Origin: Candidatus Freyarchaeum deiterrae
GTDB taxonomy: Archaea; Asgardarchaeota; Jordiarchaeia; Jordiarchaeales; Jordiarchaeaceae
DNA: 64,000 bases
NCBI GenBank assembly: GCA_037305845.1
Contig: CP147778.1
Location: 832,001-896,000 of the forward strand
Direction: 5' to 3'
Part shown: positions 61,843-64,000 of the stretch, piece after piece
How positions within the stretch are numbered: position 1 is the stretch's first letter
Layout of the letters: each line of letters begins with the position of its first letter
Translations under genes and position numbers: made by a program
Notes under the pieces: model-generated
The model's database searches: none
What the model saw: only the letters and a program-made list of their open reading frames with translations
Told to the model about the DNA's origin: nothing

Positions 61843-62733
61843 CTACATGCACCTGTAGAGTTGGATGAGGGGTGTCACATCGTTTAGTGCCGCTTCAAGG
61901 CTTATGGAGGAGTATTGGTCTATTTGATATTGTTCATCATCATCTTTCTTTATTACGTTGTGTTTTTCTAGGAGTTCTAACGCTTCTGCTGCGCTTTCGA
62001 AAAGGTTGGAGTTTTTTGTTTGGTTTATTGTTTGATGTTGTAGTATTTGGAGTGCTGTTACTTCTAGTTTCTCTTGGCGTATTTCTTTGAGAGCTAGTAT
62101 TATGTTTTTGGGGGGTGGGGTTCCTGCTTTCCAAATGAACGTTTCTTTTCCTAGCCCTTGTAGACTGATTATTTTGTTGTCGTGAAGTTCTTTTATGAGC
62201 AGCTTGGGGTTATCGGTGAAGTTTTGGGTGAGCTTAATGATATCTTCCGTGTTTGCCGGGTTAGGGGAGTGAAGTATTGCATCGAATACTTTTCTAAGTT
62301 CGCTCCAGTCTTTGTGGTTTCCTTGGAGTAGAAAACCGCTGTATTTCAGAACCGAGATTTTTCCGTTTTTCACTATGATGGGGTTCAGTTCATTCTCGAC
62401 TTTTGTGAGAAGATCCTTGAAAACTCCATTTCCGTTTGGAGTTACTCCGGTTATCTCTGTTACCAGTTCGGGAAGTTCAGCGGGTATGTTTAGAAGCCTA
62501 GCGGCTCTGGCAGTGATTGATTCTATTCCATTTGAGAAGAAAACGTCTATGAGTTTCCTCACATGGTAGGTGGGAAGGATGGATTTTTTTTCATAGAATT
62601 TTTTTATGCACTGGTCAATGAATTTTCTTCGGAGTGTTTCCCCTATTTTTAGGGAGGGAAAAAGTGTGGTGAATGCTACCGCATCCCTGTTTGCTCGAAT
62701 GAAGCTCAGTGAACCAGATTGTTCAGGGTGCAA
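61843..62733 (-). CDS. Hypothetical protein (possible C-terminal winged helix), operonic with the nurA-like gene
   Basis: 296-aa ORF with TTG start after GGGGGT; ALELLEKHNVIKKDDDEQYQI resembles a wHTH end. Confidence 0.6.
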   Translation of the reverse strand: MHPEQSGSLSFIRANRDAVAFTTLFPSLKIGETLRRKFIDQCIKKFYEKKSILPTYHVRKLIDVFFSNGIESITARAARLLNIPAELPELVTEITGVTPNGNGVFKDLLTKVENELNPIIVKNGKISVLKYSGFLLQGNHKDWSELRKVFDAILHSPNPANTEDIIKLTQNFTDNPKLLIKELHDNKIISLQGLGKETFIWKAGTPPPKNIILALKEIRQEKLEVTALQILQHQTINQTKNSNLFESAAEALELLEKHNVIKKDDDEQYQIDQYSSISLEAALNDVTPLIQLYRCM

Positions 62734-62771
62734 AGTTAAACCCCCTTATAATTTCTTATACTCCAAATCAC

Positions 62772-63086
62772 CTCTACTCCGCAAGGAAGCCCACTAACTT
62801 TAGTTAAGGCTCGAGAAATTGCGGATTTATGGGGTGGGGCTTTCATTGTCTATAAGGTCTGGTGACCCACAAACCAGTTTAACCCCTTCGACAAGCCGAG
62901 CCGGACCTTAGCTACCCCTAGGCGCCACGTATTGAGTAGTTCTGCCGAAGGGAAGCGGGACTAGACCGCATATCCCGCCGTTCTCGTAGCCCGAGGTGGG
63001 CAATCGTTTGAAACTACAATGTCCGGTTAAGATTTGCGTTTTTACAATCATTACAAGCCCGCACGATTTGGCCGTAGGTTCTTGAT
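62772..63086 (+). mobile_element. Non-autonomous IS200/IS605-family element (IscB/IsrB-type arrangement), 315 bp, inserted in the nurA-like 3' end
   Basis: Left end: TCAC|CTCTACTCC-GCAAG-GAAG-CCC...AATTGC. Right end: CAAG-CCCGCACG...CGTAGGTTCT-TGAT|. Removal restores the reading frame of the host gene. Confidence 0.75.
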
Positions 63087-63106
63087 GTCTATCCCGTGTT
63101 TTGGTT
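62830..63106 (-). ncRNA. Putative IscB/IsrB-type omegaRNA (HEARO-like), stand-alone
   Basis: Scaffold begins AUCAAGAACCUACGG...GGGCUUG; multiple helices with minus-strand G-U pairs and three possible pseudoknots; ends approximate. Confidence 0.6.
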
Positions 63107-64000
63107 TAAATAGGCGATAAAACTTTTTTGGGGATATGTTGTTTTGTCTGGCTATTTTAACTATTTTGGCTAGTAGTTCATCTGCTAGAAAGTTGGGTAA
63201 ATCTGTTTCTATGAGGCTGAAGGCGTGAGCGAATTCCAGTGACCAGGGTATATTGTTTAGGTTATTTGCCTGGTGGTAAATGGCTGAGCATATGTATTCA
63301 AGCTGCTTCTCGCTTTCAGCCAAACTCTTGTGTATTTCTACTCTGATAGGGAGCGCGTCCTTGTGAGGTTTTATGTAGAAAAATCTCTGCTCCGCAAGAA
63401 ATCTGGAATATCTCGCCCCAAAAATATTCCTTTGTGCCAGCATTGACCACAGGCCGCTCATTTGCGGGACTGTTATGTGGAGTTCCTCCGGATTACACGG
63501 CTGGAGAATTGAATCCAGAAGATTTACATCGTTTATTCTTCCGTAAATACCGCTCAGCCAAGAGGATACGTTTCTGTAATTTGCGATAAAATCCATGGAG
63601 TGGGGAGACTTTATTACAAACGCGTGGAGCGTGTCTAAGAGTTTTTCTGCCAGTATGTCCGCGGTGCCGTTGCTTCCATAAATTTTTTCAAAAACTATTT
63701 GGTACTCCTGTTGAACCTCTCTCGCCCGATTACTGAAAGCTTTTGTGTCCGCTGGGCCGTATGGCAGGAGATCGTATTGGGGAAGAAAGGGACCGTCCAG
63801 CAAAACTAGATCGTAACTGTTACCTTCGAGTGTCCTAAGGGTGACTAGCCGCTCCAAATACTGTCGGGATACCGCCTGGATTCGCTCAACATCCTCGTCC
63901 ACTAATCCCATGACTGGTATACATTTTCCAATGACATAGGGATTCTGTGCTACCGGATTGTTGCATTTGAAGGTGATGCCCGCAGCGGAAACCACTATGA
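63051..64000 (-). CDS. NurA-family nuclease, divergent (5'-partial; C-terminus supplied by the inserted element)
   Basis: LVLLDGPFLP, FVIKS, ND..LL, PIRVEI, IPWSLEFAH match the NurA DG/K/P..L..AH pattern; the frame stays open to the window edge. Confidence 0.7.
   Translation of the reverse strand, partial: IVVSAAGITFKCNNPVAQNPYVIGKCIPVMGLVDEDVERIQAVSRQYLERLVTLRTLEGNSYDLVLLDGPFLPQYDLLPYGPADTKAFSNRAREVQQEYQIVFEKIYGSNGTADILAEKLLDTLHAFVIKSPHSMDFIANYRNVSSWLSGIYGRINDVNLLDSILQPCNPEELHITVPQMSGLWSMLAQRNIFGARYSRFLAEQRFFYIKPHKDALPIRVEIHKSLAESEKQLEYICSAIYHQANNLNNIPWSLEFAHAFSLIETDLPNFLADELLAKIVKIARQNNISPKKFYRLFKPKHGIDIKNLRPNRAGL

Follow-up and report, generated by a model that had tools for sequence, protein, structure and literature searches.

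The window analysed here is a stretch of 64,000 nucleotides (nt; C1:832001-896000) of a genome consisting of one 3.58-Mb contig. The NurA proteins of relatives carry the labels Jordarchaeaceae or Freyarchaeota, which places the host among the Asgard archaea (Freyarchaeia/Jordarchaeia). Near its end it carries, on the minus strand, a nurA gene with an inserted ORF-less element, followed by a conserved gene (Table 1). The gene upstream of nurA carries PF01935 in orthologous loci. No Pfam family was found for the 296-aa downstream product, and its structure matches in the atlas were at TM 0.3-0.5 only. Five NurA-family matches (L131-L135) were seen in the genome. Element nt are numbered along the minus strand, with nt 1 at window position 63086.

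Table 1. Features of the nurA locus, given in window positions
Feature	Position	Strand	Details
nurA, 3′ part	63051..64000	minus	403 aa, begins beyond the window; PF09376; herA-like gene upstream
Would-be 20-nt guide, within nurA coding sequence	63087..63106	minus	NTGA-adjacent genomic sites all have at least 6 mismatches; empty alleles differ at 4 positions
ORF-less IS200/IS605 (ISC1/IsrB-type) element, with omegaRNA and transposon left end	62772..63086	minus	315 nt; orthologous loci empty; both ends homologous to resident isrB element; covariance model 90 bits
Element nt 1-36, transposon right end, now last 11 residues of NurA (IKNLRPNRAGL) and stop	63051..63086	minus	Ten related proteins; synonymous bias
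Decayed group-B IsrB omegaRNA scaffold (S1-S4, SL1-SL7, adaptor and nexus pseudoknots)	62859..63086	minus	Helices by covariation in 21 homologues; 10/50 pairs broken
Slow segment 1: SL4 hairpin and 5′ strand of a non-canonical 11-bp helix	62937..62983 (nt 104-150)	minus	0.49 parsimony steps/site
Slow segment 2: 3′ strand of 11-bp helix, invariant 14-mer, SL7-position hairpin	62854..62894 (nt 193-233)	minus	0.46 parsimony steps/site
Transposon left end, weakened hairpin	62772..62826	minus	Aligned to left end of resident isrB element; DNA fold z -1.3
Target tetranucleotide/TAM GTGA	62768..62771	minus	Junction of empty alleles; GTGA/ATGA after most related elements; described ISC targets (PMC4810608)
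Orphaned ancestral NurA tail VIWSIRNYKGV, with G-rich ribosome-binding site of next gene	62736..62771	minus	Open in window copy
Conserved downstream gene	61843..62733	minus	296 aa; intact in filled and empty loci; weak winged-helix likeness

A preliminary description of this DNA had proposed a GC-richer, ORF-less stretch with IS200/IS605-like ends, and the GC, ORF and end comparisons agreed with this, the ends and coordinates also being confirmed in the sequence. The GC content was 0.53-0.55 in the element vs. 0.38-0.45 in the flanks and 0.41 genome-wide, and no internal ORF of at least 50 aa was found. A 36-codon frame starting at an ATG (window 62736-62846, minus strand) crosses the left end and continues into what was the NurA tail; this ATG is absent in the orthologues. 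The insertion was missing from nine orthologous nurA loci (five of the same genus and four of the same order), and hence the segment is not a constant part of nurA. In the five same-genus empty loci the protein reads KPKHGLE-VIW and the junction is GTGA, as expected from the earlier assignment of GTGA as the TAM at the matching junction, and excising 62772-63086 in silico restored an equivalent tail, VIWSIRNYKGV. The insertion point is the codon boundary before GTGA. The element does lie within nurA, as had been claimed, but only 11 codons before its stop, so that the NurA domain is complete.

The described ISC targets are GT/GA and N/ATGA (PMC4810608), and GTGA or ATGA directly follows most related elements. 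The distance from the junction to the left-end motif is the usual one among them. The ancestral element ends were reconstructed by parsimony as GTCAAG and TCGAG, and because the ancestral 5′ end reads GTCA, the element boundary is ambiguous by 2 nt. The left end evolves at a neutral rate and carries deletions in orthologues. For 4 of 17 elements (L029, L046, L057 and L125 junctions) the last 3-6 nt are the same as the last nt of the 5′ flank, which suggests look-alike target choice or blurred boundaries. Elsewhere in the genome (L064, C1:1182481-1182520), a 36-nt right-end-like hairpin starting from ATCAAC and followed by GTGA lies directly upstream of a gene, and is possibly a minimal element remnant.

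The nurA frame now ends within the right end of the element. The element-derived tail, [VI]KNLR plus six residues, terminates ten related NurA proteins, including relatives at 85-93% identity. The first five tail codons of six carriers showed five synonymous vs. one non-synonymous (conservative) change (P about 0.02), and the tail stop codon was fixed in all six. Read in the same frame, the 5′ ends of the resident isrB RNA and of the L055 omegaRNA likewise give 11 codons and a stop. Thus, as the element 5′ end supplied in frame a tail of the same length as the lost one, NurA stayed whole. A truncation or frameshift has disrupted the old tail in each of the other four filled copies, with the G-run of the ribosome-binding site kept. 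Since only one of five carriers still has an unbroken old tail and the new one is conserved, splicing could be excluded, leaving the new tail as the one translated. This shows, as far as codon conservation can tell, that nt 1-36 are now used by the host as coding sequence. The AlphaFold model of NurA had a mean pLDDT of 61, with the tail below 50 (low confidence). IStrons are IS605/IS607 elements removed from host mRNA by splicing. The window element resembles them as an IS605-family element that is harmless inside a host gene; unlike them it has no intron, its harmlessness coming from tail replacement, and an IStron was accordingly rejected.

An RRXRR search of the genome returned a single gene (C1:2160298-2161359), coding for a 353-aa IsrB without HNH insert. 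The protein matched DtIsrB (PDB 8DMB) at E 2e-72, with the three RuvC motifs present and R316/Q319 aligned to the TAM-reading R323/Q326 of DtIsrB. The resident isrB element (about C1:2160298-2161589, minus strand) is homologous to the window element at both ends: a copy of element nt 1-210 lies upstream of isrB (70% identity over 210 nt), and a homologue of the left end, followed by ATGA, lies downstream. A related copy sharing both ends therefore exists. With a covariance model built from IsrB-linked RNAs only, the window copy being excluded, the latter scored 90 bits (E about 1e-29, a rough value), and the same model found no third copy in the genome besides the window copy and the resident RNA. 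The model and the homology to the resident element agreed with the earlier reading of the omegaRNA as protein-free, IsrB-type rather than IscB-type and encoded on the minus strand. A nuclease encoded elsewhere had been postulated as well, and the one isrB gene would fit, its product being putatively compatible with the window RNA.

The same genome search was to look for tnpA. Here, Y1 TnpA was not found in the one-contig genome with the PF01797 and NF033573 profiles, and mobilisation by a Y1 TnpA in trans was not supported (TnpA not found, single copy). A plasmid search for IsrB gave no match at E 1e-40 and a viral scan found nothing. The suggested Rfam scan for HEARO (RF02033) gave no relevant match on the window copy. 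The resident isrB RNA and L125, an orthologous copy of the element, matched RF02033 below the gathering score (67 and 60 vs. 83 bits), which ties the family to this model.

The resident IsrB element (L002:4299-5590, minus strand) looks intact and interrupts a V4R-like gene at codon 2 (empty site MDEQIP, orthologue MEEQIP), where its end gives a new in-frame ATG. A 99.9% identical isrB locus from another sequencing run (L070:690) has a one-base deletion close to the first RuvC motif; the resulting frameshift may be a strain variant or an assembly error.

Both ends are homologous to the isrB element, the omegaRNA comes without a protein, and several other Asgard genomes contain ORF-less elements of this type. 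Judged by these comparisons, the element is a PATE-like, ORF-less IS200/IS605 derivative of an IsrB element, a kind already known. Like PATEs (Meers et al., bioRxiv 10.1101/2023.03.14.532601), it has both ends, no protein gene and an omegaRNA inside, and depends on proteins in trans; it differs in being IsrB-type and not TnpB-type, in having a single, decayed copy that is fixed in several species-level lineages, and in its fusion to the host frame. It shares with ISC1 transposons (Kapitonov et al., PMC4810608) the GTCA-type 5′ end, subterminal hairpins, GTGA/ATGA target and lack of a clean target duplication, but not the nuclease gene, and the Y1 transposase was not found in the genome. A direct deletion derivative of the resident element was not supported: L125 showed much the same similarity to each of three IsrB RNAs (78-81%), none of which matched the linker following SL7.

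Further ORF-less IsrB-type omegaRNAs with a left end were observed in other Asgard genomes (L087, L088, L097, L098, L108-L111, L116 and L118), several with an intact adaptor pseudoknot; these are better trans-guide candidates than the window copy. At L086:1501-1745, a well-preserved omegaRNA (175 bits) lies downstream and not upstream of an isrB-like gene, with no left end seen nearby. A close relative whose sequence comes from the metagenome of L125 carries a second IsrB element (L057:2772-4050); the corresponding site, near C1:758590, is unoccupied in the window genome.

The state of the omegaRNA was assessed against a reference structure of 50 pairs from 21 IsrB-linked RNAs, with pairing in 94.8% of the cells and double changes at 32 pairs. 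Covariation was scored as pair counts, with shuffled and slid controls (slid pairing 30-48%). The structure corresponds to the group-B architecture of DtIsrB, with adaptor and nexus pseudoknots (Hirano et al., PMC9581776; PDB 8DMB). The window RNA shares with it the helix order, the two pseudoknots by homology and the NTGA TAM; it differs in having no linked isrB, partly broken pseudoknots, S1 and SL5, and a terminal hairpin without Shine-Dalgarno sequence. Ten of the 50 core pairs are broken in the window copy (two each in S1, the adaptor pseudoknot and SL5, and one each in the nexus pseudoknot, SL1, SL2 and S3), compared with 0-5 in 18 homologues of the same subtype, and S2, S3b, S4 and SL4 are intact. 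The covarying pseudoknots (nt 38-43/147-152 and 121-124/200-203) are both damaged. The adaptor (SL2-SL5) retains 4/6 pairs, one of the broken pairs being kept in 22/22 homologues, and the nexus retains 3/4, one of them weakened to G-U, all four being kept in 22/22. S1 retains 5/7 and SL5 2/4 pairs. Moreover, the window copy departs from 14 of 66 conserved columns (resident isrB RNA: one) and carries a mutated GACUAG motif, and the folding z-score of the element (-1.0) is no better than that of shuffles. All seven pairings drawn beforehand are present in the window sequence, but the three crossing ones are not the covarying pseudoknots of the family: they were 32-56% paired in homologues and variable in orthologues, and were rejected as pseudoknots. 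The proposed covariation check thus found the family helices covarying in IsrB-linked RNAs and these drawn pseudoknots not matching. The contrast of decayed end hairpins with intact RNA helices held for the weakened left end and not for the omegaRNA core.

The age of the insertion could be read from orthologous nurA alleles. The filled alleles comprise five full copies (window, L125, L127, L129 and L130; four from metagenome contigs) and one cut copy, and ancestral states were derived with our own parsimony script. The filled alleles are monophyletic (UFBoot 99), pointing to a single insertion. This indicates that the insertion is old, of single origin, inherited and fixed in the sampled clade of relatives. 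The four other full copies have 5, 15, 18 and 21 of 50 pairs broken, and the five copies scored 168, 90, 60, 49 and 36 bits, compared with 175-235 bits for intact held-out copies; L125, the best-preserved orthologue, is still fairly intact. The model score dropped with the host root-to-tip length (r = -0.96 on the log score, n=5). Overall pair loss (37) was close to that simulated under neutral placement (38.9 ± 4.4), and the non-coding divergence of the element was 0.7-1.1 times that of four-fold sites.

Two segments in the 3′ half evolved more slowly. Their parsimony steps per site (0.49 and 0.46) compare with 0.98-1.10 in the rest of the element and 1.04 at four-fold sites. The maximum-likelihood tree length was 0.57 for the two segments, 1.54 for the rest and 1.43 for four-fold sites, the segments evolving at about 40% of the four-fold rate. 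The contrast was significant for each of three alignments in a two-window scan (P at most 0.0003) and seen on 8/8 branches, with three gap columns inside the segments vs. 49 outside. A 14-mer, TAAACTGGTTTGTG (62868-62881), was invariant in the five copies (P about 0.001 or lower).

The helices in these segments form a different set from those of the guide fold, and the 11-bp helix (nt 135-145/193-203) is incompatible with the S2, S4, SL5 and nexus pairs of the canonical structure. As the preliminary description had drawn three such helices from the window copy alone, the branches not leading to this copy provided a fair test. On these, the SL4, 11-bp and SL7-position helices lost 6/92 pairs, compared with 24 ± 4 expected. 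The drawn non-crossing helices (11, 7 and 5 bp) were thus kept in orthologous copies more than chance predicts, and the earlier hint of selection on the RNA gains some support, though for helices other than those of the guide fold. Three double changes keep Watson-Crick pairs in the segments' helices, their excess having P 0.002 under one null and P 0.10 under another. The consensus fold of the five copies contained the same three helices. Full-length folding of the window RNA gave them near-zero predicted probability, and the stability of the retained region did not clearly exceed that of shuffles (z -0.1, +0.7, -1.8, -2.1 and -0.2 in the five copies). The 11-bp helix was pairable in 88% of cells in functional omegaRNAs, and it therefore predates the insertion. 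Gene conversion with the resident RNA was rejected as the cause of the slow segments, which carry different alleles and whose 14-mer occurs once in the genome, as was a hidden ORF across them, the frames not being conserved.

Elements of this kind are moved by a Y1 TnpA supplied in trans, with OMEGA nucleases re-establishing them at empty sites. Taken together, we favour, with a probability of roughly 0.7, a fossil protein-free IsrB-type element that is immobile, no longer a working guide and in part put to use by the herA-nurA operon. The element would owe its placement to a Y1 TnpA working in trans, and IsrB-guided nicking of empty alleles may have helped its early spread. It would have been tolerated because the tail swap was harmless and, once fixed, would have lost mobility and target. 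The two segments may have been kept as refolded hairpins (SL4, 11-bp helix, SL7-position) in the herA-nurA-orf mRNA, the retained structure sitting in the 315-nt gap opened between nurA and the formerly directly adjacent gene, where the hairpins could contribute to expression of the downstream gene or to transcript stability. This cis role in the mRNA, which we infer from five sequences, would be about an even bet should the favoured explanation hold. The fuller statement, that an omegaRNA was domesticated without its nuclease, the guide fold being lost and re-paired into a cis structure of this mRNA and the 5′ end becoming the NurA C-terminus, is accordingly put forward as tentative.

Selection may instead have acted on nothing besides the short coding tail, the slow segments being due to chance, alignment anchoring or mutational cold spots. 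The neutral overall pair loss and the weak folding z-scores would fit this, as would the various decay stages of stand-alone copies in other Asgard genomes and the finding of no promoter- or terminator-like site (by a bacterial-type scan of an archaeal host). We consider it rather improbable, as the rate contrast held in three alignments and after scan correction, extended to all branches and came with a 14-nt invariant run and with indels avoiding the segments.

Much less probable is that the segments represent a residual IsrB-binding module (decoy or regulatory), or a protein-binding site at the DNA level, and not host mRNA structure. They include SL4 and the region around SL7, in contact with the IsrB PLMP domain (PMC9581776), an IsrB element lies on the contig of a close relative from the metagenome of L125, and the 14-mer holds an imperfect palindrome. 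Yet the SL7-position hairpin is unlike that of IsrB-linked RNAs in sequence, other motifs invariant in functional RNAs are lost, and the double changes indicate pairing and not a DNA site.

The fossil reading also has to be weighed against what the preliminary description had inferred, a functional stand-alone guide cut from the nurA transcript, which would load the IsrB encoded elsewhere and nick empty nurA alleles. The best NTGA-adjacent genomic site for the guide had 6 mismatches in 20. Empty alleles of relatives differ from the guide at 4 positions, which in the tested same-genus alleles are all located no more than 10 nt from the TAM. The insertion is fixed in the sampled clade, and no TnpA was found that could make an empty allele. 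Disruption of the adaptor or nexus pseudoknot abolishes nicking by DtIsrB (PMC9581776). Although the resident IsrB retains its RuvC motifs and aligned TAM readers, four helices are intact and trans-acting stand-alone omegaRNAs are reported for IscB (in a passage of PMC9581776 citing earlier work), such a working trans guide is thus highly unlikely, given the broken pseudoknots, S1 and SL5, the mutated GACUAG, the 70% identity to the resident RNA, the clock-like decay with neutral pair loss in orthologues, and the missing target and TnpA.

Stand-alone omegaRNAs are usually read as trans-acting guides. The five orthologous copies with a known host tree show directly the fate of one such element after fixation, its guide fold having decayed with host divergence, and this cautions against calling stand-alone omegaRNAs functional from one sequence. 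The locus also illustrates how an IS200/IS605 element can be harmless in a gene without splicing, since its end reads as a protein tail of the same length. Provided that the residual constraint is real, the host would have co-opted the RNA half of an OMEGA system and not its protein, a case of which we found no report in the literature searched. Finally, the resident IsrB with its intact RNA offers a testable Asgard nickase.
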